In this document: one piece after another, positions 2,335 to 33,985 of the stretch
How positions within the stretch are numbered: the first letter of the stretch is position 1
Layout: the number at the start of each line of letters is the position of its first letter
Source: a virus
Lineage: Duplodnaviria; Heunggongvirae; Uroviricota; Caudoviricetes
IMG/VR virus record: IMGVR_UViG_2925891887_000003
Reading direction: 5' to 3' (one strand)
DNA length: 55,008 nucleotides
The notes under the pieces: model-generated
Databases searched by the model: none
What the model was told of the DNA's origin: nothing
The model's input: the letters and a program-made list of their open reading frames with translations, nothing else
Program-made: the position numbers and the translations under genes

Positions 2335-2348
2335 GATGCAGTTCTCCC

Positions 2349-2672
2349 TCAGTGTAAAACCGGCTTTTTGATGTGACGGACGCATAACTCATCCATTACG
2401 GCTATCCCGAGCTGGGAGAGTGCGGGACAGGACATTAGAGGGCCGGATTCCATCAGGTCTGAAAGCAGGGCGCAGGCGATTTCCATGCCTTTTGTTTGCC
2501 CGTGCTGTCGCAGATAAAATCCTTCAAGCTCACGGGCAATAGCGGTTTCAATTTCATCCAGAGTGAGCTGCAGGTGGCGGTTTTGCTGATAGCAGGCACT
2601 CAACCAGGCGCAGGCTACCGCGCGGCGATACAACGCTACCCGAAGTGAAAGGGAAAGAGTGCGTGATTTCAT
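2349..2672 (-). CDS. hypothetical protein, immediately upstream of alpha in the leftward operon
   Basis: 107-aa ORF, 14 nt upstream of the alpha start, same strand; ATGA overlap with the next ORF upstream. No recognisable motif. Confidence 0.4.
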
Positions 2673-2893
2673 TGCACCACCTCCATGTTCATCAGGTCAT
2701 CCTGGCAACGCTGTACCACGCCATCAAGCTGCTCTGTCATCAGATAAATCAGGGAAACCAGTTGCTCACATTGAGCACTGGCAGGTTTTTCGTAGCAATC
2801 CTGAAGAACAGCCATTCCGGTGACAAACTCCCCCACGTTACGAAGATGCTTCAGGCGGACAATATCGTCATAAGAGATTGCGGCGTGATTCAT
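2669..2893 (-). CDS. hypothetical small protein (position of P4 epsilon-like genes)
   Basis: ORF 2669..2932; internal ATG at 2893 ([11 protein letters not shown]...) preferred. Translationally coupled to the downstream ORF. Function inferred only from position. Confidence 0.3.
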
Positions 2894-3287
2894 CACATCA
2901 CCTCCCGGACAGGCAGGCGAGCAGCAAGGCAAAGCACATATTCATGGACCAGTGAAAGACGTGCATGAGACTCATCGCTGGCGACAATACGCAGCATACT
3001 GATACGTGGTTTACGTTCTGCACGACGAACGGCGGCAAAAACAAATATAAATTGAGGATGTGATGGGGTGAGGATCGTAGCCATAAGGGCAATCTCCAAT
3101 AAGTAGCGGTTATTGCCACCACCAGAGCTGCAAATCTCATGGGTGATGGCCCGGACGGGGTTTGCAGTACCGGCCTTATTGGAAACCGGCCAGCCCGAAG
3201 GCTGCCCCGCCCGGACCACCATTATCTGACAGGAGCCACGGTGTAAGCACCACAGCCCGAAAAATAGGTGTGCCTGAGCAACGACAT

Positions 3288-3309
3288 AAAAAAACACGCT
3301 CGACGCGTG
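3288..3309 (-). terminator. intrinsic terminator downstream of the AlpA/Vis-like gene
   Basis: On the minus strand: 5-bp GC stem (CACGC/GCGTG, loop GTCGA) followed by U7 (plus-strand A-run 3288-3294). Confidence 0.45.
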
Positions 3310-3437
3310 CTGTGTCGCCAATAAGTTACACGGGCTGCAAATCCCGGCTGCCGATTTTGCGGCAGCGGAAAAACTATAACTGGAAAGGTTGCCAGGACGC
3401 AAGCCACAAAAAAAGAGATGAGACTGCAAAGCCAGAT

Positions 3438-3698
3438 TCACGCATGGACTCCTTGCTCGCGGGCTGCAATTCGCGCCGCCATCCATGCACTGACCTCCGA
3501 CTGTACCCAGGCAACATTTTTTCCACCCAGGGAGATCTGCTGCGGGAAGGCATCACGGCTGATAAGGTCGTAGATGGTTGAACGGGATAGCCCGCAAAGG
3601 TGCATCACTTCAGGTAATCGTATGAAGCGCTCCTGCTGAGTCGGAACCGGGAGCACCGGAGCAGCTGGTGCCTGGGTGGAAACGGAAATAGTATGCAT
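3438..3698 (-). CDS. AlpA/Vis-family (MerR-like) phage transcriptional regulator
   Basis: 86 aa; [49 protein letters not shown] matches the AlpA-family pattern (RLP.V....G.SRST.Y......FP....LG...V.W..SEV..W). First gene of the leftward operon, divergent from the late operon. Confidence 0.75.
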
Positions 3699-4232
3699 CT
3701 CGCTACCTCTCTAATATGTTTTCAGTAGTCCGGAGAATTCCATCCGGATTCAGGTAGTTCCTTATTATGTTTATATAAGCGGCTCGCGCATGCTTTATTT
3801 AATTAGAGTGAAATATTGCTTTCTCAAAAAATAAAACAGCTAAAAACCGGATAAAACGGACAAAAACAAATCATTCCTTCATGGAATATAATAAGGAACT
3901 TAAAGAATAAAAAAGTCTATTACACCAGGCAGGATCGCAGCTCAAGCCTGAACCAGACCATATCATTCCGGGCGTTACATCATAAGGACAAAGACGGCAC
4001 CGGAATAATAAAAGGGCCAAAAAACATCCATAAAAAACAGTTCATCATATGTATTAATTAAATTAACGACTAAAAAATTAAATTACCCGCATCCTTCCGC
4101 ATTTATCCGGATGTGTTTAATGAGCATCAGACAGATTCATTTTTATGGATATTTTCTTGAAATGCAACCGAGTGTAGGGAGGTTAAGTTTTGAATTTTCA
4201 AACAGACATAAGACACATTTTATACTGTATAT

Positions 4233-4450
4233 TGAATAGTGTTGAATACGTGTGAATAGTGGTGATGAGTAAAAATCTAGTAATAAACTGAAATAAAGAT
4301 CGCGACTCATATGAAAAACAAATATAAGTTTAAATTTATCTCTGTGAACAGTCATGAACAGTAGATGACCACTTTGATTTAAACACTACACTCCTTAATT
4401 CCATGTATTTACTATTCTTTTATAAAAGTGAACAGTAGTGAATAGTATGT
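4233..4450. repeat. cluster of at least 7 TGAAYAGT-type short repeats (candidate iterons or operator sites)
   Basis: tgaatagtg, tgaatacgtg, tgaatagtgg (4233-4260); gtgaacagtc, atgaacagtag (4345-4365); gtgaacagtag, gtgaatagtat (4429-4450). Confidence 0.5.
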
Positions 4451-4511
4451 ATTAAAGGAAGGGTGAAGATCAGACATGACACCTTTCTCTGGCTAGCCAG
4501 AACAAGGTCAT

Positions 4512-4529
4512 TGTTCAGTCACTGGCACA
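4512..4529 (+). promoter_or_regulatory. TGT-N12-ACA dyad, candidate Ogr/Delta activator site of the late promoter
   Basis: tgt tcagtcactggc aca, ~75-90 bp upstream of the Sid-like start codon; P2/P4 late promoters carry a TGT-N12-ACA element near -55. Confidence 0.4.
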
Positions 4530-4601
4530 ATCCTCATCGGTAGTGCGCTTGTATGGGCACCGGCACAATTGACTCAACAACAAAACACTACCGGAGCAGC
4601 C

Positions 4602-5354
4602 ATGACAACTGTTAACCAGATCCCTGATGTAAACATTACACCTTCCCTCCCGCCGAAAATTCGCGAAGCGGTAGAAAAAGTTAAAGCAGCAAAAGCTGTC
4701 TGGCAGGAAGAACGGCGAAAACAAACTGAAGCCGCTGCAATGACTGAAACTATCCGTAAACGTCAGGAAGATACAAAAACGGAGACGCAGGCGCTTAATG
4801 ATGAATGGCGAAACCTGTTTCGTGAGAATCAGGGGAATATGACGCCACGAATGAAAAAACTGCGGGCAGAAATCGCCCTCGGACGCGAAACACTGGATGA
4901 GTTCGAAGATTTGCTGGCAGCTCAGGCCGCAGAAAATGAATTCCTGCCATGGAAAACTGCGGATGCTGCAAACCGCTACATCAGCGAACATAATCGCCTG
5001 ATTGAAACTCATGCAGTGTGGCTCTGGAATGAGTTTATGAAGGAACACGGCCAGAAACTTATTCAGATCCTTGGACTGCTGAAAATGACTCTGGGCCGAA
5101 GCGCATCTTCTGTTATCGGTGTAGTTCATACCGTAAACGACCCCGAAAGTGTGCTGAAGCAATTTATCAGCGAGCAACTCACCACTCCGGCACTGTCCTG
5201 TAACGTATCTTCAACGGATGATATTGCCCTGCCGGGGATCAGCATTTATGCGGACGATAAAGCCATACAGGATGCCAGACAATCACCCAGCCCTGCAGCG
5301 CGTTCCCGGATGCTTAAACAGCGTGACATGGTTAAAGGGGGCGAGAAGGAATGA
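4602..5354 (+). CDS. P4 late-operon protein, possibly Sid-like capsid size determination protein
   Basis: ORF 4569..5354 (TTG); ATG at 4602 with GGAG upstream preferred (250 aa). Predicted helical and charged; first gene of the operon ending in Psu-like and Ogr/Delta genes. Sid assignment is positional only. Confidence 0.4.
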   Translation: MTTVNQIPDVNITPSLPPKIREAVEKVKAAKAVWQEERRKQTEAAAMTETIRKRQEDTKTETQALNDEWRNLFRENQGNMTPRMKKLRAEIALGRETLDEFEDLLAAQAAENEFLPWKTADAANRYISEHNRLIETHAVWLWNEFMKEHGQKLIQILGLLKMTLGRSASSVIGVVHTVNDPESVLKQFISEQLTTPALSCNVSSTDDIALPGISIYADDKAIQDARQSPSPAARSRMLKQRDMVKGGEKE

Positions 5355-5905
5355 ATACCGGAACCATTACTAAGGAAGCTCTCAACGATTACCGCGCGGC
5401 GATAAAAAGCTGGCTGACACTACGTAATGTGCAAAGTACCAGCCAGCTTCGTCTGGCGGCTTTGCTGGATACTGAAGAAAAACCCGCAGCATATGCCAGC
5501 CAACTTGAGGATCTTCGTGAGCATCTTGTACTCCTCGAATGGCAGATTAACTGTGCCGCCCGGGATGGTCTTTATGCTCACCAGATTGTGCTGGAAAGCT
5601 GTGTTACAAGCGCAACTGAAAACTTCATGAGCGAGCATGGTGATGCACTCACTGACGCTCTGGCTCCTTTTCTTTGCGCACCATACGGGCTTGAGGCGGC
5701 AATGAAAATATTACGAACCGCTGTAGCCCGACAAACGGAAGTCCGTACTCCGGTAATTTCAGCAGCATATAAGAGCATTATCGACGAAACCGGATTAACG
5801 GTGGATGCATCAATGCGCGCTGATGCTTCAGCCAGTTTCACCCCGGCACAACATAAAGTTTTCCTGGCCCGCCTTAACCGACTTAATGAAAAAGGAGTGT
5901 GCTGA
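5351..5905 (+). CDS. Psu-like (polarity suppression / capsid decoration) protein
   Basis: 184 aa; ATGA overlap with the upstream gene. Segments ALTDALAPFL and SFTPAQHKVF resemble what I recall of P4 Psu. Moderate confidence. Confidence 0.55.
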   Translation: MNTGTITKEALNDYRAAIKSWLTLRNVQSTSQLRLAALLDTEEKPAAYASQLEDLREHLVLLEWQINCAARDGLYAHQIVLESCVTSATENFMSEHGDALTDALAPFLCAPYGLEAAMKILRTAVARQTEVRTPVISAAYKSIIDETGLTVDASMRADASASFTPAQHKVFLARLNRLNEKGVC

Positions 5906-5906
5906 T

Positions 5907-6179
5907 ATGGCCCTGAAGTGTCCTGAATGTGGCGCGGTCGCTCACGCTAGAACCAGCGCCTATGAAGCTCCGTCGGTTAAACGCTCATGGTATCAGTGCC
6001 AGAGTCTGGAATGTTCCTGCACATTTACCGCACTGGAAAGCGTGGATACGATAATTATGAAGCCTCGGCGCAATGAACAGGCATCAGACAAAGCAAAAAT
6101 GCCGGAAAAACAACAGCAAACTCTCAATCGCTATGGCTCCGCGTCAAAGCTGTCAAACCGTCAGCAAATTCCTGTCTGA
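5907..6179 (+). CDS. Ogr/Delta-family zinc-finger late transcription activator
   Basis: MALKCPECGAVAHARTSAYEAPSVKRSWYQCQSLECSCTFTALESV matches the Ogr/Delta C-x2-C...C-x4-C finger pattern; AAAGGAG RBS 9 nt upstream of the ATG. Confidence 0.85.
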   Translation: MALKCPECGAVAHARTSAYEAPSVKRSWYQCQSLECSCTFTALESVDTIIMKPRRNEQASDKAKMPEKQQQTLNRYGSASKLSNRQQIPV

Positions 6180-6270
6180 TTAGCAAAATACGCCCACGAA
6201 GTCTCGGTCCAGTACCGGGATTTTTTACGCTTTTTCCCTGGCTGGCCTGAGAGCGTATGAGTGCATATCT

Positions 6271-6309
6271 ATGGCGCATGAAAACGCATGAGTCTCATGC
6301 GCCATTTTT
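6271..6309 (+). terminator. intrinsic terminator of the late operon
   Basis: Perfect 11-bp inverted repeat atggcgcatga / tcatgcgccat followed by TTTTT. Confidence 0.6.
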
Positions 6310-6383
6310 GACGCGAAAGCCCTTGTGTGGTGGCTTCTGAGACGATTTAAGGGGTGCATGAAAACCAGTCTGTTAAGCGAAGC

Positions 6384-6407
6384 GGGCAGGCGGGCGGGGC
6401 TGCGCAC
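6384..6407. other. candidate cos (cohesive end) site of the P4-like element
   Basis: GC-rich gggcaggcgggcggggctgcgcac resembles my recollection of the P2/P4 cohesive end (GGCGAGGCGGGGAAAGCAC); sits where cos is expected, between the late operon and the cargo/int region. Not verified by alignment. Confidence 0.3.
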
Positions 6408-6451
6408 GCTGAGGGGAAGTATTGAGATCGGTGAGGGGAAATCTGATTCAT

Positions 6452-6473
6452 TAAAAAGGCCGCTTTCGCGGCC
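6452..6473 (-). terminator. intrinsic terminator ending the reverse-transcriptase operon
   Basis: Minus strand: GGCCGC-GAAA-GCGGCC hairpin followed by UUUUU, ~120 nt downstream of the RT-B stop. Confidence 0.6.
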
Positions 6474-6590
6474 TGTTTAGCTAAAAGGCAATAGTGTGTC
6501 TAAATCGGTCCATCCTCAAAACGTATCGCGAATATCTTTCGGATGAACATTCAAAAGCCGATCTTCCGGTATCTGCTTCAGGTCGAAACC

Positions 6591-8630
6591 TTAGGCATCG
6601 CAACCCTTTAACGAAATTAAAATACTACTATTCATATGCTGTTCGCAACTCTTTTTTATAAAGAACGTGCTCAAGATCAGCATCTCCAGACCAGTTAAAA
6701 AGATTACATTATTTTTTAAAGAATCAATTTCAGAATCAATTACTGCATTCGTAAATCTTTTTTGACCTGTATTTGCTTCGACATATGTTCTATAAATTAT
6801 TCTCTTATGCTTAACTGTAAGATATGGGCACGTCATCATATCAAGGAATAGCATAAATGTTTCAGTGTCTTTTTTTATATCGTTCCGACCACTTATCAAA
6901 CTCTGTATAGCAAGGACAATATCTTCTTTCATTTTTAGATAGAGAACATCATCGCCTATATAGTGTAACATGCTGCATATAGAAAAATATTCTAAATCGT
7001 AAAAACACTCATTCTCACTAATACCCAACAAATCCTTAAATTCATCTGGATTGAGTTTATACTGCTCCCCCAAACCTTTCATACATATAAGTAAGTTAGA
7101 TAACTCCACTGGCCTCTCATGAATATTACCCATGCTTTTCATGCACATAAGAAGCTCATCAAAAGTATTCTTTTTTATAACTTCACTAATGTCTGAAGCT
7201 TGCTTATTAGCAAATGAATTTATTTCCAAAATAACTTGGCTAATTATGTATGTCTGTCGGACTCGAAAATCCATAGCATAAATAAAAAAAATCACCTCAT
7301 TGAATATTGAGAAGAATTTATAAGTTATATCTTCTTTTCCTGACAGATCGAACATCCTCAACAGCCTAATTACTTTGAAAAACTTACTCTTAATCGCACT
7401 TATTAAGTATGAGCTAACAAGATCAAATGTGGTATTGTTTTTTCTAACCGCAATTTTGATTCGTTTTATAAATTTGTCCGCGTGTAGCTTTTTATTCCAT
7501 ACACCTTTCAATGGAAAAAGGTTATTCATATTTTCAGGCTGAATTTTGACGTCTGGATTTAAATTAACCATAGCTGTTAACTCATCCAACTTCTCAGTAT
7601 GGATTAACGATCCATATAAATCCTCAATGATTTCTGCAATATCATTTTTAGCCATCGTGGCTCCAGTCACGAATGGCCTCTCGATAAATTCCTTTTTAGA
7701 TTCATTCAAATAAAGCTTATATTTTTCGAGTTCATTTGCCAGTACAAATTCTATTAGCTTAAATGTTTCATCATCATCCGCAAATATAAAATAATCATCA
7801 ACGTAACGTCTTATAGCATAGCTCTTATCTTTAACTATGCCTGGCTCAAGATTCAAATGAGACTCAACATTCAAGTCAACGCGCTGTAATATAATCTCCG
7901 CAAATATCCTTGAAAATTCAGGCCCAATTATTATGCCATTTGTTTCACCATAATTGGCATCTTGAAAAAGCTTATCCAAACAACCTTCAAAGCTGTTATA
8001 AGTTCTATTAACCTTAGAGAATTCTTTAGATTTTACAGCCCATGAAACGCTGTGTGTATATATATGACTAAAACACTTAGCAATATCAAGCTTTAAAAGT
8101 TTCCTAAACTTCCTTTCCAATCTATGAAATTCATATGACTCATAAAACTTATAGATGAAAGGATATTTCTTATATGAAAAATGGGAAGATGAGGAAGTTT
8201 CTTGGGAATCAAAGCCATGATTATGAAATTGTACAAGACCATCTTTTAGATTTATTCTACTTTTTAAGAAGTCCTTTTCGTAATAATAGCTCCCTATTTT
8301 GCTAGGATAACGTAGCGAAAACGGACTTTTTGTACACATATGAACCATCAAATGTTCATACTTATCATAAAAATCACAGATTCTTAACTGCGTTGAAGGA
8401 TGTATAATGCCAAGGCTTCGAGAACTCGCCAGCCCCTTTTTTATTTTATAGGAGTAAGGGATGGTATAAGAATCCAGCTTAAGGCCTTCTGAAAATGTTC
8501 CGGGTAAAACTTTATTTTCAGAAATTAACTTATAGAAACCTTCGTTAGAAAAAAGGATAGGGACTTCATATGGTAAAATATCCGTGAGAAGTACTCTTTT
8601 ATAATCACTCTTCGATATTTTAATTTTCAT
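6591..8630 (-). CDS. reverse transcriptase, large (RT-B; UG/Abi-class defence-type RT with ~390-aa C-terminal extension)
   Basis: 679 aa, ~30% GC. RT motifs: LKLDIAKCFSHIYTHSV (motif A with Asp), NGIIIGPEFSRIFAEIILQRVD (motif B), RRYVDDYFIFADD (motif C, YVDD). GGTGA RBS; start 3 nt after the RT-A stop. Confidence 0.85.
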   Translation of the reverse strand: MKIKISKSDYKRVLLTDILPYEVPILFSNEGFYKLISENKVLPGTFSEGLKLDSYTIPYSYKIKKGLASSRSLGIIHPSTQLRICDFYDKYEHLMVHMCTKSPFSLRYPSKIGSYYYEKDFLKSRINLKDGLVQFHNHGFDSQETSSSSHFSYKKYPFIYKFYESYEFHRLERKFRKLLKLDIAKCFSHIYTHSVSWAVKSKEFSKVNRTYNSFEGCLDKLFQDANYGETNGIIIGPEFSRIFAEIILQRVDLNVESHLNLEPGIVKDKSYAIRRYVDDYFIFADDDETFKLIEFVLANELEKYKLYLNESKKEFIERPFVTGATMAKNDIAEIIEDLYGSLIHTEKLDELTAMVNLNPDVKIQPENMNNLFPLKGVWNKKLHADKFIKRIKIAVRKNNTTFDLVSSYLISAIKSKFFKVIRLLRMFDLSGKEDITYKFFSIFNEVIFFIYAMDFRVRQTYIISQVILEINSFANKQASDISEVIKKNTFDELLMCMKSMGNIHERPVELSNLLICMKGLGEQYKLNPDEFKDLLGISENECFYDLEYFSICSMLHYIGDDVLYLKMKEDIVLAIQSLISGRNDIKKDTETFMLFLDMMTCPYLTVKHKRIIYRTYVEANTGQKRFTNAVIDSEIDSLKNNVIFLTGLEMLILSTFFIKKSCEQHMNSSILISLKGCDA

Positions 8631-8633
8631 GAA

Positions 8634-9830
8634 TCACCAAACCTTATTTATTTTAATAATATCTTCCCGTTTAAAAGAAGACAGTAGCCGTTTTTCAAAA
8701 CCAGCCAAAAATGAGTATTTTTTAGGCGCAGTTAATAAGTTGTGACCTGCTGCTAAAATTTTTCTCCCCACCTCGCCCTTTGAAGAAAATAGCATCCTAT
8801 TCTTAAATATATCAAGTTCCTTGAGCTGTGTTTTATCAGTTATATGTTGATAATTGTAATAAATTCCACTATATAAAGCATCAGTTTTATTACTATTGGA
8901 GTTTACTAATATATTACCAGTTAAATACTTTATTCTTTTCTTCAAGAGTTCTGCATCAGAATTATTTGAGTAATCTTTTACCGCAAGTGCAATCCTTCTT
9001 TTTATTTTCTTTATTTTCTCCTCCGAAATTCTGATCACAACATGACGACGCTGATTTTTTAATCCATGGTGTATAATAAATGAATATCCCAAAAACTCAA
9101 TTTCAGAATGTTTAGTTGAAGTGTCCTCTATGGTATACTCACTGCACTTTCTTTCATTTAAATGTAATCCATTTGGTAAAATCCTTGAAAAATAATTTTT
9201 ATAATCTGGTATTTTATAGAATGAAAAAACTATGATATCATCCACATATCTTGAAGCATAAAAAACTTCAGGCAGCCTCGCCAACTCAGCATCAAATTCC
9301 TCCATAAATATTTCTGATAAAGTCGCACTTAATCCCATACCACGGGGAAGTCCGTTATTTGCAGAGAAAGCGTTATGTTTAAAAAGACCATTGATAAATT
9401 TTTTAGTATTATGAGAAATAATCGGGTTATTATTAATTCTTTGGAAAACGATATTTTTATCTATTGATTCATAAAAACTCTTAATATCCAGCCTGTAAAT
9501 ATAATAATTTACAGGCTCACTTAACACTGTATTTACTTTTTTTATGATGTCATGTCTGTTGTTTTGTTTAACACTATACACACGCTTAATGTTATCATTT
9601 ATTTTCCTGGCGACAAGTACATCCATAAAATCTTTAAATATATACACATTTTTGTTGTTAATTCTTGAATTTGAGATCGAACCAAATGAGTATGTTTCAA
9701 TTGAGCCATTAACTTTATCAGCTATATATTTTTTATATTCAGCTGAATTCCTACCAATTTTGTATCTTTTTGGATCGGTTTTTTTTAAAAGCTTAATTAA
9801 GTTCGAAACGGAAAATGACTGGTTTAACAT
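8634..9830 (-). CDS. reverse transcriptase, small (RT-A; UG/Abi-class defence-type RT)
   Basis: ORF track starts at GTG 9863 (overlapping int); ATG at 9830 with AAGGGG RBS preferred (398 aa). Motifs: YRLDIKSFYESID (A), GLPRGMGLSATLSEIFMEEFD (B), YASRYVDDIIVFS (C, YVDD). AT-rich. Confidence 0.85.
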   Translation of the reverse strand: MLNQSFSVSNLIKLLKKTDPKRYKIGRNSAEYKKYIADKVNGSIETYSFGSISNSRINNKNVYIFKDFMDVLVARKINDNIKRVYSVKQNNRHDIIKKVNTVLSEPVNYYIYRLDIKSFYESIDKNIVFQRINNNPIISHNTKKFINGLFKHNAFSANNGLPRGMGLSATLSEIFMEEFDAELARLPEVFYASRYVDDIIVFSFYKIPDYKNYFSRILPNGLHLNERKCSEYTIEDTSTKHSEIEFLGYSFIIHHGLKNQRRHVVIRISEEKIKKIKRRIALAVKDYSNNSDAELLKKRIKYLTGNILVNSNSNKTDALYSGIYYNYQHITDKTQLKELDIFKNRMLFSSKGEVGRKILAAGHNLLTAPKKYSFLAGFEKRLLSSFKREDIIKINKVW

Positions 9831-9831
9831 A

Positions 9832-11010
9832 TTATAACCCCTTTTTTTTGCGAAGATAATCACTGTACCATTGCATCATCTTCTGCCTTTCCATAAGGTA
9901 TATGGCATGATTATAAGTTCCTCTTATATTATTTCTATCAACATGAGCTAATTGGACTTCAATAAATGCTGATTGAAAACCTTCTTCATGCAAAATTGTT
10001 GATAACATATGTCTGAACCCGTGACCAGTGAGTCGGCCTTCGTAACCGATACGCTTGATAACTTGATTTATGCTAGCTTCGCTCATCGGTTTGTTCGGAT
10101 CGTTCCGTCCTGGAAAAACATAACGATAGTTCCCTGTCATTATCTTGAGTTCATGGAGTAAATCTAACGCTTGGGTCGACAATGGCACAAGATGCGGCCT
10201 GCGCATTTTCATCCTTTCAGCAGGAATTTCCCAAATAGCGTTATCCAGATCAAATTCTTGCCATAATGCCGCGCGTAATTCGATGGTTCTCACGCCCGTA
10301 ATCATCAGTAATTTCGTTGCTATCTGGACAAGCTTACTCCCGGTGTAACTCTCTAAGGCACGCAGAAATTCGGGTATCTCATCAGCTTTTAGGAACGGGA
10401 AATGATTGGATTGGTGCACTTCGAGAGCGCTGGAAAGATCTGCCGCAGGATTGTACTCCGCTCTACCCGTTGCAATTGCGTAGCGAAACACTTCAGAGCA
10501 ACGCTGACGCACTTTCCGCATTTTCTCCAACGCACCACGTTTCTCAATTTTACGCAGTACGTTCAGCAGCTCTAGCGGTTTAATCTCACTCACAGGCCTT
10601 GTTCCAACATAAGGAAAAATGTCGTTCTTAAACGCTTCCATGATGTCTGATGCATATCCTGCCGACCATTTAGCAGATTTAAGTTGATGCCACTCTCTGG
10701 CTATCTTTTCGAAGGCGTTCTCTGACTCTGCTTGCAGAGCCAGCTTTTGCTCTTTTCGAACATCACTAGGGTTCTTTCCTTCTGCCACAAGTTTTCGAGC
10801 TTCATCACGACGGGAACGAGCATCGGCAAGAGTGATCGTTGGGTAAACGCCAAGCGAGATCATCTTGGGTTTACCGGCATAGCGATAGCGGAACCGCCAG
10901 CTCTTGCTTCCATTAGGTTCTATAAGCAATGACAAGCCTTGCCCATCCCCAAGCGTATAGGGTTTATCTTCAGGCTTAGCGCGGCGAATCTGCATATCGT
11001 TTAAAGGCAT
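9832..11010 (-). CDS. int: P4-type tyrosine integrase
   Basis: 392 aa; N-terminus MPLNDMQIRRAKPEDKPYTLGDGQGLSL... typical of P4-family integrases; C-terminal HGFRHM...RGTYNHAIY catalytic region. Adjacent to the duplicated thrW 3' segment. Confidence 0.9.
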   Translation of the reverse strand: MPLNDMQIRRAKPEDKPYTLGDGQGLSLLIEPNGSKSWRFRYRYAGKPKMISLGVYPTITLADARSRRDEARKLVAEGKNPSDVRKEQKLALQAESENAFEKIAREWHQLKSAKWSAGYASDIMEAFKNDIFPYVGTRPVSEIKPLELLNVLRKIEKRGALEKMRKVRQRCSEVFRYAIATGRAEYNPAADLSSALEVHQSNHFPFLKADEIPEFLRALESYTGSKLVQIATKLLMITGVRTIELRAALWQEFDLDNAIWEIPAERMKMRRPHLVPLSTQALDLLHELKIMTGNYRYVFPGRNDPNKPMSEASINQVIKRIGYEGRLTGHGFRHMLSTILHEEGFQSAFIEVQLAHVDRNNIRGTYNHAIYLMERQKMMQWYSDYLRKKKGL

Positions 11011-11011
11011 G

Positions 11012-11061
11012 TGTATAGGAATCCATGACCGAACAGGAACATATACACAATCCTATACACA
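11012..11061. promoter_or_regulatory. 10-bp perfect inverted repeat just upstream of the int start codon (candidate operator or Int binding site)
   Basis: gtgtatagga ... tcctatacac separated by 30 bp. Confidence 0.3.
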
Positions 11062-11172
11062 TTCTTTATCGGATTCTACTGGATGGCTGCGGACGATGAT
11101 GGACTAAAAAACGGTAAAATCGTTATAAATCAGGGTATTTATGGATGAATACGGACATTTGGGGAAGTTGAG

Positions 11173-11219
11173 ATGGTGCCGATAATAGGAGTCGAACCTA
11201 CGACCTTCGCATTACGAAT
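11173..11219. repeat. att site: 47-bp duplicate of the thrW 3' end, junction between the two tandem elements
   Basis: atggtgccgataataggagtcgaacctacgaccttcgcattacgaat is identical to 53564-53610, which overlaps the 3' end of the intact tRNA. Confidence 0.85.
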
Positions 11220-11295
11220 TATAAGAATCCACTTCTAATTCAAAGCATTACCCCATCAACACTGCGCTCACACGTCCCACCACATCAAAACATGT

Positions 11296-11353
11296 AAAGC
11301 CTTGCAAGCCATTGCGAGGCCTTATGTGTCTCAGTTTTGTCCCACCTTGTATT
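11296..11353 (+). repeat. ~58-bp direct repeat, copy A (near the prophage end)
   Basis: aaagccttgcaagccattgcgaggccttatgtgtctcagttttgtcccac...; near-identical copy at 20129-20186; contains an internal hairpin GCCTTGC / GCGAGGC. Confidence 0.7.
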
Positions 11354-11568
11354 ACGACTTGCATAGCCAATGAAGATAAACGTGACGACAAACGGCGCAG
11401 CAGTCTTCTTTTCCTTCATACTTTCCCCACCCAGCATGCATACCTTTATGCCATAACTGAAGTTTATGTCTGTTATGAGCGAATTGCAGACATTAACGTT
11501 TGGTTAAGGGACGGGCTGTAGCCCGTCCCAGTGAGCGAAGCTTAATTTAGTCCGTGTGCAGCGCTTTG

Positions 11569-12999
11569 TTAGCCAAAACTGATGTGATTTTTAGTTAGAT
11601 CTCTATATCTCTTATCGTTGTGTACTTTATGGAGGATCGTTTGGTTGGCGATCAAAAAATCTATAATTTCTTGAATTCTTTCGCTACGAGCATTGGCTCT
11701 TAACAAAGTCAAAACGCTTACCATATGTTGCTGGCAGTATTTGTTGTCTAAATTCACTCGCACTTCATTAGAGTGCATTGCTATAACTGTATTGATAATG
11801 TTTTGATCGCCAAGCATGCCAAAAAACTGATCATACAAAGGTCGTCCCGCCGGAGAAACACCAGTATTATATGGTATTCCTTTACCAACACGACAAATCA
11901 AAACTGTTTTTATAAGCTTATGAACCCTCTCTAAAGGTATGTCATTTTCAGTCTTTAAATACGAAAGAATCTTCCGCATATGAGGGGGTTCATTATAAAA
12001 GTTATCCCAAGCATACCTAGCCTCTAAGAGATCGTCGGCATGGCCGTCCAGTGATATAATTCTAGAGTCTAATGATTGATAACGATTACCATCACAAAAC
12101 GTAAAAAACTCAATACCTAAAGCATGTTTCTCGTTGTGAAGATTGTTCTTGTATCCGTCTAGCGTCACGCCGAGCTTGTATTTTACGTTATCACTGCTTT
12201 TATTCCAGATATGCGGAGCAAAAAGAGCGATATTTTTTCTGACAACATTTCCTGTTGAATCAGCTGTATATATGCCGAAAATACTATTGAGTAGATTGTC
12301 AGTATTCTGAAGCGACAGATCATTCAAAGGTCTTTCCATGCTATGAATTGTGGCTTCATCAAGAACATCAGTGGATCTTTTTAGATTCTCAAGGAATGAT
12401 TTTATTTGTATGGCAGACGCGGACGGTTTGTCGTTCAAAATATCTTGAACGCATGTTTGGAGCCAGCCAAGAAGTTCAAAAGCATTTATGGAGTATGAAT
12501 TTGGGTGCGAAGCACCAATGTCATTCCTCATAGTCAATATATGATTGAGCTTGGTGTAAACAACGTCAGATATTAATTCAAGTTTTCGGCAAGTATTAAT
12601 AAGGGTGTTGTCTTTTAAACCAGAAAGATCTTCTTCGGTAGAATAAAGCTCTCTACGTCCTCCTCCAACTGCAGCATCAAAGAACATATCGAGGCCATAA
12701 ACTACTACTTTTTCCCTTAAATTCAGTACAACTTCATTCCAAACATAATTTAACGATGCATCAAATAGTCCTATAGCCGCACCAGCAACGAACTTTGATA
12801 AATATCGAGCATCTCTTTTTACCTCAGCAGGTAAAGAATCTATGAATGTGGGGAGGTTTTTTTCAATAATTTGGCGCTCAGGGAGAGAGGCAATTATATT
12901 TTCGGTCGGCAAACCAAGATAGGATAAATATCCTTCAAATTTTGTTGTATCTGTGGAAAGTACCCCTGTTCCAGGTTTTGCAATCAATTCTGAACTCAT
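11569..12999 (-). CDS. hypothetical 476-aa protein, AT-rich moron at the prophage end
   Basis: Long AT-rich ORF with ATG start; no motif I recognise. Strong 10-bp GC hairpin (11509-11531) downstream. Confidence 0.7.
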   Translation of the reverse strand: MSSELIAKPGTGVLSTDTTKFEGYLSYLGLPTENIIASLPERQIIEKNLPTFIDSLPAEVKRDARYLSKFVAGAAIGLFDASLNYVWNEVVLNLREKVVVYGLDMFFDAAVGGGRRELYSTEEDLSGLKDNTLINTCRKLELISDVVYTKLNHILTMRNDIGASHPNSYSINAFELLGWLQTCVQDILNDKPSASAIQIKSFLENLKRSTDVLDEATIHSMERPLNDLSLQNTDNLLNSIFGIYTADSTGNVVRKNIALFAPHIWNKSSDNVKYKLGVTLDGYKNNLHNEKHALGIEFFTFCDGNRYQSLDSRIISLDGHADDLLEARYAWDNFYNEPPHMRKILSYLKTENDIPLERVHKLIKTVLICRVGKGIPYNTGVSPAGRPLYDQFFGMLGDQNIINTVIAMHSNEVRVNLDNKYCQQHMVSVLTLLRANARSERIQEIIDFLIANQTILHKVHNDKRYRDLTKNHISFG

Positions 13000-13615
13000 A
13001 CGATTATTTCCTTATCTGGTTGAAGGCTAGAGAACAGCTAACGCTTTTAGCAGGGGCGCGACGTTAGGAGCGTCCCATACCTAAACTTGTTAAGGTATTT
13101 GTGAGCAAACGCCACCAGTATTTGGGTTTAGATCCAATACATACTTCATGCGAGTACAACCTATCCCGAATCAAGCAGGAGTCATTTCTCCCGCACTTAG
13201 GGTTTGGACATTTCATGTTCCCTACCCATGGTGAATTCGATTCGTAATGTACGATCTTCATAAAGCCTTAACAATTTAATAGAAGGCTTTTTTGCCCGCA
13301 AGTGGAACATTTTTCTGCCTTCTTTCCTGATCTTTACTCACATCAAACTAACGCTGATATACCTCTATTTCAACAGGTTTTTCTGAAATCAATAAATTTG
13401 CGTCCGGCAAACTTTATACAGCCAGTACGCGAGTTGTTCTTGATTTACTTAAGCTGGACACATGGGAATTATCCAGCGGCTTGTGCTAGTAAAAGAAGAA
13501 ATTATCAGGCATTTACCACAACGCCCAATGCCCGCTTTTGGCACAAAGCAGACGCCCACTCTCACGCGAATGCTTTGCCCTTGACTTGCCAACAACCGTA
13601 TCGCTTGCTCCGCAA

Positions 13616-14908
13616 CTATGGTTTTTTATTAGAATCTTCGCCACTAAATAAATTATAATAAATTGATTTTATTAGATATCTGTCAGAATCTATATGGTCA
13701 GCACGAGTAGCATGCTCTAATGTTTCAAATGCTAGGGTTTGTGCGGCTTCAGCAAAAATTCCAGGCCAACCCTTACTCAGCATCGACAGTCCTTTAAGGA
13801 CCCTTATCTGAATTTCCCTCATACTGGCACCATCGCGCGCAACAGGTGAGAAAAAGTCTTCAAGTAGATCGTTATTCTGAAGTGGTGCAACATGTACAGA
13901 AGGATATTTCACTTCTATTTCATCAGATTTATTCTGCGCGTAAGCGGAAAGTATACGTACACCTCTGCCAATGACATCAATGGCGGTTCCAGGATCGTTC
14001 ACTGCGGGGGAAAGGGCTCGGCAGGCTATTTCGGCCATGACGCTAAGACAAAATCGGGGGTCCTGAGCAAATGAACGTACATCCGAGACAATAATCGTCT
14101 CAAGTAAATCGGTGCTGATTGATGACTCCTGGCCCTGACTCAGGTACAAAACTGGCGTGGACGGATGTATGAAACTGCCCGGCTGCGCCACGAGGTATAC
14201 ATGACGGGGATCATTGGTCAGCAGCTTACTGAGTTTCACCATATCAACATATTCAACATAGCCAATCTTTTTCGGATAAACTGCAACCGTTCCTTTCGGC
14301 TGTTCATTGTTCTCAAGCCATGGATATCCGCCGAGACAGGGATTTCTTGCTCTCGCAATAAATGTTTCGATGGCCGCCTGTTCTACTTTTGCCGTTGTCT
14401 CACCAACCCTCCCCAGAGAGGTCAAATGCTGTATCCAGCGAAGCAATGTGATGAGGATTAAGGCAATGACAACCAGTGTTACAATGAATAAAATGACTCT
14501 CCCCCTTTCTCCATAAGCTCCCATATTGAGGGCAATAATCCCTACCAGACTGAAGAGAAAAGAACCGATGAAGGTGGCCAGTACATTTTGTGTGGTGACG
14601 TCTTCAACAACTAAACGAGTAGCTCTGGGAGTCACATTAGTAGTGGCTGAACCGTAGGCTGTGACCATGATGCTCAGCGAAAATGTGGTCACTGCCAGCA
14701 TACTCGATGCCAGTATGTTCAGAATGTTATCGACTGCTTCCGCACCAACCTTCACGGAAACCGACTCAGGTATCATTGATTTAAAAAGAATTGATAAAAG
14801 GGCCGTTATTATTGCGACAATTGCGAATAACGTTGCCCTGAACCATAGTTTTTTAAATGTCTGCTTCAGCATCCATTTCCAGCGTGAAATCATTCTGCAT
14901 TCCCTCAT
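13616..14908 (-). CDS. membrane protein with N-terminal TM helices (DUF2254-like)
   Basis: 430 aa; four hydrophobic segments in the first ~160 aa, then a soluble domain. Family name from recollection only. Confidence 0.55.
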   Translation of the reverse strand: MRECRMISRWKWMLKQTFKKLWFRATLFAIVAIITALLSILFKSMIPESVSVKVGAEAVDNILNILASSMLAVTTFSLSIMVTAYGSATTNVTPRATRLVVEDVTTQNVLATFIGSFLFSLVGIIALNMGAYGERGRVILFIVTLVVIALILITLLRWIQHLTSLGRVGETTAKVEQAAIETFIARARNPCLGGYPWLENNEQPKGTVAVYPKKIGYVEYVDMVKLSKLLTNDPRHVYLVAQPGSFIHPSTPVLYLSQGQESSISTDLLETIIVSDVRSFAQDPRFCLSVMAEIACRALSPAVNDPGTAIDVIGRGVRILSAYAQNKSDEIEVKYPSVHVAPLQNNDLLEDFFSPVARDGASMREIQIRVLKGLSMLSKGWPGIFAEAAQTLAFETLEHATRADHIDSDRYLIKSIYYNLFSGEDSNKKP

Positions 14909-14919
14909 ATTGCAGCCGG

Positions 14920-14949
14920 GATAAATAAATGCCGCCTCTGTGGCGGCAT
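14920..14949 (-). terminator. intrinsic terminator downstream of the BCCT transporter gene
   Basis: Minus strand: 8-bp stem atgccgcc/ggcggcat followed by a U-rich tract. Confidence 0.5.
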
Positions 14950-14956
14950 GTTGCTG

Positions 14957-16960
14957 TTAACGAACCAGATGCAGGAAGTGCAGGTGTTTTTCGTACTGGT
15001 CCAGTATGTCATTAATCAGCTGTTCCTGATTCCAGCCCATTACATCATAATTTTGGCCGCCCTCTTTGAGATAGACTTCAGCGCGATAATATCGATGTTG
15101 TTCACTCTGCTGCTCATCATTATCCAGCGCAGCGAGCGCGAAGGTCGGTGAGTTATACCCGCGAAGCCTCACTTCATATATATAATTCAGCTCGTTGCCC
15201 AAATCGACTTCAAGGCGAATACGATCCTCGGCGGCGTCACTGATGTGGCTTATCGTTCCCTGCTTGTTAAGTTCCTCCTGAACCAGCGTCATGGCGGGTT
15301 GGATAATGTCGTCCATAAAACGTTTCACAAGAGAGCGCTTCGGCAAATACGCGATATTGCGTAACCTTCTCTGCCAGGGAATTGGGTTACGTGCAGCCGT
15401 AGGAGCAATAGTCGCCATGCTAAGGCTTTCACGCTTGGTCAAATCCCGACGCAGGGCTTTTAACAGTCCGTATATGGATATTAATAAGATAACTGAGAAG
15501 GGCAATGCACTCGCTATCGTTACGGTTTGCAACGCACTCAGCCCCCCTGCGATCAGCAGGGCAATAGCAACAACGCCCATGAGCAATGCCCAGAAAATTC
15601 GCTGCCAGACGGGCGTGTTTGCCACCCCACCTGATGCCAGAGTATCCACAACCATTGCCCCCGAATCAGCAGACGTTACAAAGAAGACGATGACCATCGC
15701 CATTGCAATGAATGACAGCACGGAAGAGAACGGGAAATGCTCCAGGAAATTAAACAGGGCAAGCGCAACATCCTGCTGAACGGTATTGGCGAGGTCAGTG
15801 GCGCCCTGGTTCATGATGAGATAGATGGCGCTGTTTCCAAACACCGTCATCCACATGAGCGTAAAGCCGGCGGGAACAAACAACACGCCAGTCACGAACT
15901 CACGAATTGTCCTGCCGCGGGAAACGCGTGCAATGAACATACCTACAAACGGCGACCATGAAAGCCACCATCCCCAGTATAATAATGTCCAGCCCCCCAG
16001 CCAGTTGCTCGACTTGGGTTCATACGCGTAAAGGTTGAACGTTTTACTCACCAGTTCCGACAGATAACCACCCGTATTTTCCACAAATGACTTCAGCAGA
16101 AGCACAGTGGGACCCAGGCACAAGACCAGCGCCAGGAGCAACACCGCCAGGCCCAGATTAAGCTCAGACAGGATGCGTATTCCCTTGTCCAGGCCGGACA
16201 CCACCGAAATCGTCGCTAACCCCGTGATGACCACGATCAAAATGACCTGTACCGTTTCATTGATGGGCACGCCGAAAAGATGGTTCAAACCGGCATTCAC
16301 CTGCAATACACCGTAACCCAGCGATGTTGCAACGCCAAAGACAGTGCCTATCACGGCGAAGATATCAACCGCGTGGCCTATAGGCCCGTAAATGCGATCG
16401 CCGATAATGGGATAGAGCGCAGAACGCAGCGTTAAAGGCAGACCGTGACGGTAACTGAAAAAGGCCAGAATCAGCGCCACGATGGCATAAATTGCCCATG
16501 CGTGCAGACCCCAGTGGAAGAACGTCAGGCGCATGGCTTCCTTCGCTGCCGCAACGGTCTCTGGAGTGCCGACAGGTGGCGAAAGATAATGCATCACAGG
16601 TTCGGCAACGCCAAAGAACATCAGGCCGATCCCCATCCCTGCCGAAAAAAGCATCGCGAACCAGGAGTGGTAGCTGAAATCAGGCTGCGCATGGTCTGGG
16701 CCCAGCTTTATATCACCGTAACGTGAGAGTCCAAGGAACGTGACGCTCAGTAAAATCAGGGCCACAGCAAGTATGTAGAACCAGCTGGCATTCGTGAAGA
16801 TTTGTTGCTGAAGTAGTTTAAAATTTTTGTCGGCGACATCCGGGAATACGGCGGCAAAGGCGACAAGAAGGAAAATTAGCAAAGCAGATGTAAAGAATAC
16901 CGCTTTGTTAACCTGGCTTGTAGACTTCTTTGGGGTTGTATCATTTTCACTCATAATCAT
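14957..16960 (-). CDS. BCCT-family transporter (BetT-like choline/betaine transporter)
   Basis: 667 aa, polytopic; long collinear similarity to E. coli BetT (e.g. SRYGDIKLGP, WTLLYWGWWLSWSPFVGMFIARVSRGRTIREF) plus a C-terminal cytoplasmic extension. Divergent from K-12 betT. Confidence 0.8.
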   Translation of the reverse strand: MIMSENDTTPKKSTSQVNKAVFFTSALLIFLLVAFAAVFPDVADKNFKLLQQQIFTNASWFYILAVALILLSVTFLGLSRYGDIKLGPDHAQPDFSYHSWFAMLFSAGMGIGLMFFGVAEPVMHYLSPPVGTPETVAAAKEAMRLTFFHWGLHAWAIYAIVALILAFFSYRHGLPLTLRSALYPIIGDRIYGPIGHAVDIFAVIGTVFGVATSLGYGVLQVNAGLNHLFGVPINETVQVILIVVITGLATISVVSGLDKGIRILSELNLGLAVLLLALVLCLGPTVLLLKSFVENTGGYLSELVSKTFNLYAYEPKSSNWLGGWTLLYWGWWLSWSPFVGMFIARVSRGRTIREFVTGVLFVPAGFTLMWMTVFGNSAIYLIMNQGATDLANTVQQDVALALFNFLEHFPFSSVLSFIAMAMVIVFFVTSADSGAMVVDTLASGGVANTPVWQRIFWALLMGVVAIALLIAGGLSALQTVTIASALPFSVILLISIYGLLKALRRDLTKRESLSMATIAPTAARNPIPWQRRLRNIAYLPKRSLVKRFMDDIIQPAMTLVQEELNKQGTISHISDAAEDRIRLEVDLGNELNYIYEVRLRGYNSPTFALAALDNDEQQSEQHRYYRAEVYLKEGGQNYDVMGWNQEQLINDILDQYEKHLHFLHLVR

Positions 16961-17485
16961 TTATTCCATTAATTAAATCCGCACTGGATAGAAGGTACTA
17001 CCTCTCACAGAGTAGCAAAGTTCAACTGGCTATGCGGGATTAATCGGAATGCATGGTGGAATGAGTGCCGATACAAATCATCCTATATTCTAAGGAGTTT
17101 TAAGTTACTCAGCCTGCCAATTACTGGGGCATTTAATTTGTATGATCTGTATCAAAGCTGGGATATAAGTTAAGTGAAGTATATTAGGCACGAATTACCA
17201 GCGTCTGCTCTTGGCACATAGCAGACCAGAGACACTGGCGTAAAGCCATGGAGGATCGGTGGGAGGAGGTAAAAATCCTCTCATGCAAAAAATACGCAAA
17301 ATCGATAACAGTTGGAAATCATTCAATACTCGCACTATCGGAAGTTCACCAGCCAGTCGTAGCACGTTCTTGCATACGACGTGGCTACGGGTTTCGAGAC
17401 CGACCCGATCATCAAACGAAACATAAAATTAGCTCACATTATGAGGAAAGGTATCTTTTTGCGCTATGTAAATTCAAAGGGTTAG

Positions 17486-18355
<870 letters not shown>

Positions 18356-18905
18356 GTATTCAATTGATAAGATTAAACCGCAGCACGTTATTGCATACAA
18401 CGTGTCTGCGGTTTCAACTCCGCCGGCCCCCCCCAATCATGATTGGACAGCACTTGCAAAAAAAGAAATTAGTATTCTCAGCAGGACACCGGTCAGATAG
18501 TGCGGCAGATCAATGTCTGGTTAATATTGATGACCGCTGCCCGCTGATTCTATTGCCGAAACTGTGCGGGAAAAGATGTGGCAAGATATTGTTGGTAAAA
18601 AATTCTCAGTGACTTTATGCCAGCAAATCAGTTTGCCTGGCATCCAGTATCATGTGCGGTGGATAATGTCAAAAAACATGGGGAGTCGATTAAACAGGTA
18701 TAATCGTTAAAAACCTTCAAACTCCAGGCAAAACCCTATTTCATAGAACATGTACTTTCATCTGGTATACATGAACGAATTATGACTGCGTTAGTAAAAT
18801 TACCTTGGTTAAATTACAGGCAGAGATATATGTTCCAGTCCAGTGCTTTTTCGTTTACAATATTTATCTTTCATTATCACTTGACTTTATTAAAAGAGGT
18901 TCGTT

Positions 18906-29240: not shown

Positions 29241-30736
29241 TATGCAGACTCCTCTGAATACTGAAGACGGAACTGGTTAACCACGGCAAAAACACGCAAC
29301 TGGTTAACATAGTCAGGCGGGAACAGCGTGTTCAGGCGGTTCGGATCGCTGGCATCACGCTCCACAACCAGGTACTGCTTAAACAGTTCGTAGTTTTCCA
29401 CGATCCCCGCACGCTCAAGCTGACGGTAGGTTGCCAGCAGTTCCCCTTTGATTACCGCCGGGGTGACAATCGCCTGACCGGGACCAAAGCGGGTACCGTC
29501 GCTGGCAAGCTTGTGACGCCCGTACTTACTGGTAATGACGGATTTCAGTTTGCGCAGTACATACGCACTGGTATGCAGCGTCTCGCTGTCGAGGTAGCTG
29601 TTATCCGCAACCCCGTAAGCATTTTTCCTGTACGTGGTGACATCACGCTGAATGCGCAGCACCCCGCTTTCGACATACGCCGTTGCCACGCCATGAGACA
29701 GCAGGGTCTGCTGCTCGGTCATCGTGAACCGTTTCCCCTTCGGCGCAGGCAGCATACCCACCAGCTCACCGGTCTGCGTGGGACGTGCCGGATCGTTGCG
29801 GATAAACACCGCTGCGCGGGCGGTACGGCTTGCCGCCAGCTCGTCGGCAGGCGTCTGGGTCTCTTTTTCGTACCCCGCCAGGGTGATGTGCTGCTGGTTA
29901 AACTGGTCACCTGCGTTCACCAGTTCTGACAGTGTGCCGGTCTTTGCCGTATACACATGACCATACAGCTGACGCGCATAGCTCCAGCGACCGCTGGTAT
30001 CGTTCATTTCGGTCACCAGCGTGTTAACGGAGGCCGTGTCGTTGAACGGCAGACCGATATAATCAAACGGCTCATCCGCCATTGCAGCCACCGCGCCGGT
30101 GAGAACCGGAGCGCCCGTTCCGGCGGTCCCCGTCGCCACGGCAATCTGTACGCCCGCTGGCAGCACTTCGCCCCCACCGAAGCCGTAGTAATTGAGGCTG
30201 ACAGGAATTTCATTCCCGCAAAGCCCCTTATGACGCGCGGTCAGCGTGACAACACCAGCCGAAGATGAAGCTGTAAACGGCAGAGTCGGAACGGCATTGA
30301 TGGCATCTTTGATACTGCTGGCAATCGTCGTGACGTTATCGCCGTTGGTCACCGAAGCCTGCACGCGGGTACGTCCCACATAGACATTCACCGTGCCGCT
30401 TTCGGTTGCTTCCCCGGTCACCGTCAGCGTAACCGTTGCCGCCGCGCCTGTGGCTTCCGGAACGGCAATCACATACAGCTCACCAAACGGGTCGGTCTGG
30501 CGATAAGCCTCGACCATACGCGCCAGCTGACTTCCCGCACCACAAATCTGGCGTGCATAGTCTGCCGACGGCATCAGCACCAGACTGTTGGCAACAATCT
30601 CTGCACCGTTATTGGCATGACCAATCAGCAGCGATGCTCCGCTGTCCTGTGCAGTATTCGCAGCCTGGTTATCCATTTCCGCATAAAACAGCGGAACCAG
30701 CGTATTCGACGGAATGGTGTTAAAGCTTATCGTCAT
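29240..30736 (-). CDS. contractile tail sheath protein
   Basis: 498 aa; size and position upstream of tube/chaperone/tape measure. Confidence 0.75.
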   Translation of the reverse strand: MTISFNTIPSNTLVPLFYAEMDNQAANTAQDSGASLLIGHANNGAEIVANSLVLMPSADYARQICGAGSQLARMVEAYRQTDPFGELYVIAVPEATGAAATVTLTVTGEATESGTVNVYVGRTRVQASVTNGDNVTTIASSIKDAINAVPTLPFTASSSAGVVTLTARHKGLCGNEIPVSLNYYGFGGGEVLPAGVQIAVATGTAGTGAPVLTGAVAAMADEPFDYIGLPFNDTASVNTLVTEMNDTSGRWSYARQLYGHVYTAKTGTLSELVNAGDQFNQQHITLAGYEKETQTPADELAASRTARAAVFIRNDPARPTQTGELVGMLPAPKGKRFTMTEQQTLLSHGVATAYVESGVLRIQRDVTTYRKNAYGVADNSYLDSETLHTSAYVLRKLKSVITSKYGRHKLASDGTRFGPGQAIVTPAVIKGELLATYRQLERAGIVENYELFKQYLVVERDASDPNRLNTLFPPDYVNQLRVFAVVNQFRLQYSEESA

Positions 30737-30890
30737 CGGTGTTCACCTTTTTATTCACGCGCCGGATATCACCCGCTGCTTCACGGCGCAGCCAGTAGTT
30801 GTTCTCATCAACATTTCGCCCTTCGGCGGGCAAAAGGTCGCCGCGGGCAGGGTCAGGCACTGACCGCCCTTTAACAGGTTTCACAAACAT
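30720..30890 (-). CDS. small hypothetical protein (56 aa) upstream of the sheath gene
   Basis: Not in the ORF track (<60 aa). ATG at 30890; MFVKPVKGRSVPDPARGDLLPAEGRNVDENNYWLRREAAGDIRRVNKKVNTDDKL; fills the sheath-upstream gap and overlaps the sheath start by 17 nt. Confidence 0.35.
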   Translation of the reverse strand: MFVKPVKGRSVPDPARGDLLPAEGRNVDENNYWLRREAAGDIRRVNKKVNTDDDKL

Positions 30891-30898
30891 GATGATCC

Positions 30899-32667: not shown

Positions 32668-32745
32668 AAAACCTCCTGTGCCCGCCAGAACGCAGGCACA
32701 AAAAAACCGCATTACGCGGCGTGCTGTATTACGTAAAAAGACTAA

Positions 32746-33975: not shown

Positions 33976-33985
33976 GATGTTTCCT

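Follow-up and report, generated by a model that had tools for sequence, protein, structure and literature searches.

A P4-like satellite and an SfV-family prophage in tandem at the tRNA gene thrW of Escherichia coli

At the Escherichia coli tRNA gene thrW, the stretch of DNA analysed in this work (55,008 nt in full, hereafter the window) carries a P4-like satellite followed by an SfV-family prophage, and these very probably constitute a tandem array of two independent elements, built by unrelated tyrosine integrases with different cutting places. A satellite and a prophage in tandem at thrW is a common and already described arrangement, and the present case carries little weight beyond correct annotation; for this, exact boundaries were set for two mobile elements, both of them bearing anti-phage defence cargo. 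As thrW is common to integrases with different crossover sites, the att fragments found there differ in length, and in the delimitation of genomic islands by tRNA fragments a 47-bp search alone would miss the outer end of the satellite.

The thrW repeat

The window begins at the alpha stop codon and ends at the proA start codon. Over its left 20 kb, three complete E. coli genomes match it with 100% identity, and PC-NDM34 (NZ_CP082120.1, 3735575-3790582) matches the window exactly at both ends. The main parts are as follows:

1-11172: P4-like satellite, the part within the window (P4 gene order; Pfam and Rfam matches)
11173-11219: internal 47-bp copy, a displaced thrW 3' fragment (repeat; flank alignments)
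11220-53563: SfV-family prophage, 42,344 bp (Int identity; SfV alignment; PGAP annotation of identical DNA)
53564-53610: proximal 47-bp copy, consisting of the 46-bp SfV/P22-type att core and 1 nt (exact repeat)
53565-53640, minus strand: intact thrW, tRNA-Thr(CGT) (ARAGORN; Rfam tRNA, 71.8 bits)
53755-55008, minus strand: proA, the chromosomal flank upstream of thrW (PGAP annotation of identical PC-NDM34 DNA)

The two 47-bp copies form an exact direct repeat (11173-11219 and 53564-53610), the longest one within the window, with identity ending at both repeat edges and with 0 matches expected by chance according to 100 dinucleotide-preserving shuffles; the original prediction, which had described them as identical copies of the thrW 3' end, was thus correct on this point. 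The tRNA-Thr(CGT) gene is the sole tRNA gene of the window (ARAGORN, Rfam) and adjoins proA, and it is therefore thrW. From the coordinates of the repeat and of the tRNA gene, the repeat comprises one flanking base and the 46 nt of tRNA positions 31-76, which begin at the 5' edge of the anticodon loop and end with the CCA.

For the SfV-like prophage, the internal copy serves as the distal att and the intact thrW as the proximal one; the first 18 nt of this copy (11173-11190) double as the att core of the P4-like satellite on its int side. To its right, the sequence from 11220 to ~11345 aligns with the SfIV attP arm, and to its left lies P4-like DNA identical to that found beside intact thrW in strain AR_0019. 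The neighbouring integrase genes were located as had been anticipated: the ATG of the P4-type int lies at 11010, 162 bp away from the internal copy (~160 bp in the prediction), and the lambdoid int is indeed close to the intact tRNA gene, with its stop codon ending at 53550, which leaves 13 bp to the repeat and 14 bp to the end of the tRNA gene. No further full or partial 47-bp copies, with up to 3 mismatches per half, were found elsewhere in the window. The stretch 11220-20000 was considered as a separate island and ruled out as such, given that no additional partial att copy in the window splits it, and it was treated as prophage cargo.

The satellite and its outer end

The left element is P4-like, as had been proposed, with an alpha product 73% identical to that of P4, Psu, Delta and AlpA proteins, C4/cI RNAs, and an integrase with a P4-type arm-binding domain. 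With its boundaries taken from PC-NDM34, AR_0019 and 22AR0322, the whole satellite measures 12,750 bp and extends 1,578 bp to the left of position 1, up to a 17-nt att copy. Its features within the window are:

1-2385, minus strand: alpha primase-helicase, the window beginning at its stop codon (Pfam Zn_Ribbon_Prim, Toprim_3, D5_N, Pox_D5)
3139-3379, minus strand: P4 cI-type immunity region (Rfam gathering-score matches)
3139-3226, minus strand: C4-type immunity RNA (Rfam, 86.1 bits)
3289-3366, minus strand: isrK (Rfam, 72.9 bits)
3327-3379, minus strand: c4-a1b1 targets (Rfam, 50 bits)
3438-3698, minus strand: AlpA/Vis-type excision regulator (Pfam Phage_AlpA, E 4e-20)
4569-6179, plus strand: sid-like, psu and delta late-control genes (Pfam Psu in two genes, Ogr_Delta)
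6591-9863, minus strand: DRT3 defence system (PADLOC; PGAP names)
6591-8630, minus strand: drt3b (PADLOC Drt3b, E 5e-218)
8634-9863, minus strand: drt3a (PADLOC Drt3a, E 2e-154)
9832-11010, minus strand: P4-type tyrosine integrase, 392 aa (Pfam Arm-DNA-bind_3, Phage_int_M, Phage_integrase)
11010-11061: candidate arm-type Int binding repeats with the motif CTATACACA (motif search; P4 attP layout)
11010-11018, minus strand: candidate arm repeat, overlapping the int ATG
11041-11049, plus strand: candidate arm repeat, 1 mismatch
11053-11061, plus strand: candidate arm repeat

The gene order is that of P4 (int, cargo slot, delta/psu/sid, immunity region, alpha), although the order of delta and psu is swapped relative to P4, and Ash and DUF5375 domains are also found in the satellite (Pfam). 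Aligned along its entire length, the integrase of the satellite is 41% identical to that of P4, and the positions of the R, HxxR and Y motifs coincide. Also shared with P4 are the C4-type immunity RNA, the int-psu cargo slot, the layout of arm repeats, and an att core located ~150-160 bp upstream of the int ATG. In contrast, P4 targets leuX with a core of 20 and carries gop/beta/cII as cargo, whereas the present satellite targets thrW with a core of 17-18 nt and carries DRT3, that is, two reverse transcriptases placed in the int-psu slot, in a region of ~30% GC versus ~50% for the remaining satellite. In related thrW satellites, this slot is occupied by a nuclease and UvrD-helicase pair, or by an ABC-three-component system.

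Regarding the att arms, exact copies of the candidate motif number 5 in locus L001 versus 0.57 expected, and 4 of these lie within ~170 bp of two att cores; with one mismatch allowed, the motif shows no enrichment over the whole window, and only exact copies that cluster at these arms are informative. The satellite att layout consists of an inverted arm repeat on the int ATG, two repeats ~110 bp from the core, and two more ~58 bp past the far side of the core. The P2/P4 cos 19-mer, which P4 possesses, was not found in the satellite within 3 mismatches; the segment 6330-6480 aligns with the right end of P4 and contains a related G-rich motif. As there is no exact copy of the cos 19-mer, the satellite is at present only putatively mobile.

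The distal att copy of the satellite had been predicted to lie just beyond position 1, as a third copy of the 47-bp segment in the flanking genome. No third 47-bp copy was found there within 3 mismatches. A distal copy does exist beyond position 1 and beyond alpha, but it is located 1,578 bp out, past one more cargo gene, and it consists of 17 nt lacking one base instead of 47 bp. In PC-NDM34 this copy reads ATGGTGC-GATAATAGGA and sits between satellite DNA and the native flank that adjoins the yagP remnant and paoD; it emerged only by sequence reading and a gapped pattern. The distal copy is ATGGTGCGATAATAGGA in PC-NDM34, 22AR0322 and AR_0019, and compared with thrW it comprises the last 17 nt and one base, with one G/C missing. 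All thrW fragments, the 17-nt copy included, are co-oriented with thrW. The O157:H7 satellite carries the identical 17-nt core with the same deletion, although its adjacent arm sequence has diverged, which suggests that the shortened core is an attP feature of this satellite family; if so, the satellite crossover would fall within the last ~7 nt of the tRNA gene. Alternatively, the missing base could have been lost by mutation at a later time and then passed on by descent, without being a feature of attP.

The interval between alpha and the distal att may constitute a second cargo slot of the satellite. It harbors a 365-aa ORF (L007 1885-2982, minus strand; 94-1,191 bp to the left of position 1) with weak PADLOC matches to SIR2 (E 4e-9) and none to Pfam, and in strain A30 the slot is filled by an HNH endonuclease.

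The prophage and its att pair

The right element had been called lambdoid, and it corresponds to an SfV-family prophage with lambdoid organisation, the Int of SfIV and the structural genes of SfV; the authors of PMC3636060 likewise call the Sf phages lambdoid. It combines lambdoid early and regulatory genes with an HK97-type head and a Mu-like contractile tail, and its predicted gene set appears complete (PGAP annotation). The features related to its integration are:

11220-11345: SfV-type attP arm, on the side opposite int (alignment with SfIV attP)
52076-52510, plus strand: excisionase Xis (Pfam HTH_17; same position as the annotated SfIV excisionase gp29)
52387-53550, plus strand: SfV/P22-type tyrosine integrase, 387 aa, reading toward thrW (Pfam Phage_integrase, E 3e-48)

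The amino acid identity of Int is 100% to SfIV, 99.5% to SfII, 98.5% to SfV and ~90% to P22-like phages, and the structural module (21275-38246) displays 97.9% nucleotide identity with SfV. The SfV-type attP arm likewise adjoins the 47-bp copy in LR-06 and O157:H7; in the window, the 13 bp that separate int from thrW align with the other side of the SfIV attP. A 46-bp attP core has been published for SfI and stated to be common to SfII, SfV, SfX and P22 (PMC3636060); when compared, this core (ATTCGTAATGCGAAGGTCGTAGGTTCGACTCCTATTATCGGCACCA) was found to be the exact reverse complement of 11174-11219 and 53565-53610. The identity of Int and of the structural genes, the attP arm and the match to the published core thus make the 47-bp repeat a classical SfV-family att pair. 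In all, the prophage shares with the Shigella phages SfV, SfII, SfIV and SfI and with P22 the Int (98.5-100% for the Sf phages), the 46-bp core, the attP arm and the position of xis-int beside att, and its head/tail module is ~97-98% identical to that of SfV.

The 17 bp of phage DNA past the tRNA end (53547-53563, gtaacttattgatttaa) resemble the native sequence downstream of thrW (gtaactctttgatttta, L004 3984-4000), a likeness by which the phage attP mimics the host site beyond the 46-bp core.

Shigella flexneri serotype-converting phages carry gtrABC beside attP, whereas other cargo is found here: no gtr genes were annotated or detected within 11220-20000. Since gtrABC is absent beside attP, this is an SfV-family phage, though not a gtr serotype converter. 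The gtr slot contains a 476-aa ORF, DUF2254 and BCCT transporter genes, a capsid gene fragment, a GIY-YIG gene and an Acyl_transf_3 gene. The first three of these, the second encoding a membrane protein, occupy 11466-17235 at the prophage att end, a module that recurs on E. coli plasmids at 99.8-99.9% identity; the 476-aa ORF has no Pfam or PADLOC match. The GIY-YIG protein (17531-18355, plus strand) matches the PADLOC model of the PD-T4-3 defence system (E 4e-140), and its gene is kept at the same place in the SfV-type elements of several strains, O157:H7 included. The Acyl_transf_3 acyltransferase gene (18906-19973, plus strand; 31% GC) was found in 3 genomes only, where the remainder of this prophage end is present as well; as it lies in the slot of the O-antigen-modifying genes of Shigella phages, its product may, by analogy, be an O-antigen acetylase.

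Elsewhere in the prophage, a KAP-family NTPase (41586-42917, plus strand) matching the PADLOC candidate defence model PDC-S20 (E 1e-176) is encoded in an insert of 31% GC that separates the Q antiterminator gene from the holin gene, a difference from the Shigella Sf phages; SfI bears tRNA genes at this interval (PMC3636060). Four tandem 15-bp iteron-like repeats (47577-47651), located within the replication gene annotated as a helix-turn-helix protein, are probably the phage origin.

Two integrases with one target gene

The original prediction attributed the array to two integrases with the same att specificity, a claim that finds no support in the data. [quoted passage not shown] Judging from these sequences, with the crossover positions read from the edges of the identity blocks, the two integrases share their target gene and not their recombination site. 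Blocks of 46 and of 17-18 nt fit the sublocation classes known for tRNA-targeting integrases, i.e., anticodon-centred (A) and T-stem/acceptor (J) or 3' end (PMC4383910; bioRxiv 10.1101/2020.11.02.365908). That both enzymes share one att specificity and acted successively on a common 47-bp site would agree with the thrW 3'-end copies that bound both elements and with the int gene adjoining one copy in each case, but we regard it as highly improbable, as the integrases are unrelated outside the catalytic fold, the third 47-bp copy is absent, in each of two diverged P4-like elements the distal copy has just 17 nt in common with thrW, and the core and arm-repeat layout matches that of the P4 attP with its 20-bp core.

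Junctions in complete genomes

Junction-specific queries were compared with 5,426 complete E. coli genomes, and matches were counted at a query coverage of at least 80%; the following counts are per genome and not per event, and are inflated by clonal groups such as the heavily sampled O157:H7:

948 of 5,426 genomes: predicted empty site (native flank, intact thrW and proA side), 100% identical among the matches listed
120 genomes: P4-like int beside intact thrW
465 genomes: SfV-type arm and 47-bp copy beside the native flank
329 genomes: tandem junction as in the window, O157:H7 included
2 genomes: opposite-order junction (SfV-type int, 17-nt core, satellite far arm)

As the synthetic empty-site query matches 948 genomes, with 100% identity among the matches listed, the regenerated thrW equals the native gene. 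Singly occupied thrW genes are exemplified by AR_0019, with the P4-like element alone, and by LR-06, with the SfV-type element alone. The tandem insertion of two elements at thrW, as originally predicted, is therefore well founded: each of them is found alone elsewhere, and the exact empty site exists.

Longer arrays were also observed. Strain 22AR0322 was rejected as the window's own genome since it differs at the right end, where a third element lies between the SfV-like int and thrW (L002 27838-29278), resulting in a triple array. This third element leaves a 20-nt thrW fragment (ATGGTGCCGATAATAGGAGT) and encodes a 425-aa integrase unrelated to the other two; its assignment to the K-12 IntF family was rejected, with 24% identity in the catalytic region only. 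The opposite-order junction is exemplified by A30, whose array (L010 19598-33900) comprises a truncated SfV-type int, a 17-nt core, a P4-like satellite, a 47-bp copy and an island with an SfV-type arm. The old, truncated SfV-type int is thus outside the satellite, and the satellite is outside a newer element with an SfV-type arm, a sandwich that shows repeated accretion at the tRNA-proximal position.

Integration model and alternatives

Starting from the observed repeats, the identities of the elements, three junctions, and the empty and singly occupied sites, we propose the following model. The SfV-family attP would carry a 46-nt stretch of thrW, and its Int would recombine attP with the resident thrW; this insertion would rebuild thrW at 53565-53640, with the 3' 46 nt coming from attP, and would move the old 3' fragment to 11173-11219. 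The satellite would carry a shorter core, the last 17-18 nt of thrW, ~160 bp upstream of int as in P4, and its ends would be the first 18 nt of the internal copy and the 17-nt copy 1,578 bp to the left of the window. According to this model, the satellite would have arrived first, and the phage would later have inserted between the satellite and the tRNA gene. The predicted att sites and circle junction are:

Predicted phage attP: 53551-53563, the 46-nt core, and 11220 onward
Predicted satellite attP: ...gttgag, the 17/18-nt core, and acaaacaaatc...
Predicted junction of the 12.75-kb satellite circle: ...ggggaagttgag, the core, and acaaacaaatcaac...

From its gene content, each element might still be able to excise alone, the phage by means of Int and Xis, and the satellite by means of Int and AlpA/Vis.

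The tandem structure is symmetric as to the order of arrival, and a satellite entering the displaced 47-bp fragment gives an equal map. Nevertheless, the satellite probably preceded the phage at thrW, because the phage can use only a copy containing the anticodon region, because the identical satellite is found alone at thrW in at least 5 genomes, and because the flanks of PC-NDM34 are nearer to those of AR_0019, with the P4-like element alone (1 mismatch in 1405 bp and 0 in 3046 bp), than to those of LR-06, with the SfV-like element alone (13 mismatches and 1 gap in 1480 bp), in a comparison spanning ~4.5 kb only. The opposite order, with the SfV-like phage first and the satellite then entering the displaced 47-bp fragment, which retains its 18-nt core, seems rather unlikely to us. 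It would lead to the identical end map, there is a precedent for secondary integration in Sp10, for which the attR of Rac served as attB (PMC2669165), thrW is commonly occupied by an SfV-type element alone (465 genomes), and in A30 a P4-like element entered a thrW already rebuilt by an SfV-type element; however, that late satellite of A30 took the intact thrW rather than the displaced fragment, the junction of the opposite order is seen in only 2 genomes, and among the at least 5 genomes with the identical satellite alone, AR_0019, the one checked, has matching chromosomal flanks.

The satellite and the phage could also move jointly as one composite element of ~55 kb, in keeping with the presence of the same tandem pair in three strains from three countries, with 100% identity over 1-20500, the part compared. 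This is very improbable, given that each part occurs alone with precise junctions, that the internal att copy is intact, and that the partners at the tandem junction differ elsewhere, e.g., in O157 (Sp1/Sp2) and A30. As for the repeat being a chance match or an assembly artefact, the probability is practically nil, with 0 matches in 100 shuffles and the same structure present in several independently assembled complete genomes.

Returning to the independent insertion of two elements, a more speculative extension, which we consider doubtful, is that such arrays have a built-in polarity. Because the 17-18-nt core of the satellite is nested inside the 46-nt core of the phage, the phage would enter solely at the intact tRNA gene, and the satellite Int would see three usable cores. 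Resident satellites would then be pushed outward and thrW arrays would represent an ordered record of arrival, and the satellite Int might at times recombine across the phage, deleting or co-mobilising it. The bias in junction order (329 versus 2 genomes) is compatible with polarity and is confounded by clonal sampling.

Comparison with known arrays

Tandem arrays at tRNA genes constitute a catalogued category in Islander (PMC4383910), in which every member brings an integrase and a tDNA fragment of its own, the latter oriented as the tRNA gene; the window has the same traits and represents one further example, with no difference in kind. The CP4-6 element of K-12 shares with the window the thrW target, the distal flank (yagP/paoD) and a displaced thrW fragment; it is not a P4 and SfV tandem, its intF lies at the distal end, and its thrW fragment, of ~48 nt, is of the anticodon type.

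In O157:H7, Sp1 and Sp2 (CP-933H/CP-933I) have been placed at thrW, and Sp2 has been classed as P4-like (PMC8190617; PMC2669165). The arrangement is the same as in the window: proA and thrW are followed by a lambdoid element whose int is of the SfV/P22 type, then by the 47-bp fragment and a P4-like element, and last by the 17-nt core. The proximal element of O157:H7 is a degraded remnant with a truncated int, whereas an apparently complete SfV-family prophage is found here. The P4-like elements are ~93% identical around int and differ in their cargo, which in O157:H7 is an ABC-three-component system plus IS, and here is DRT3.
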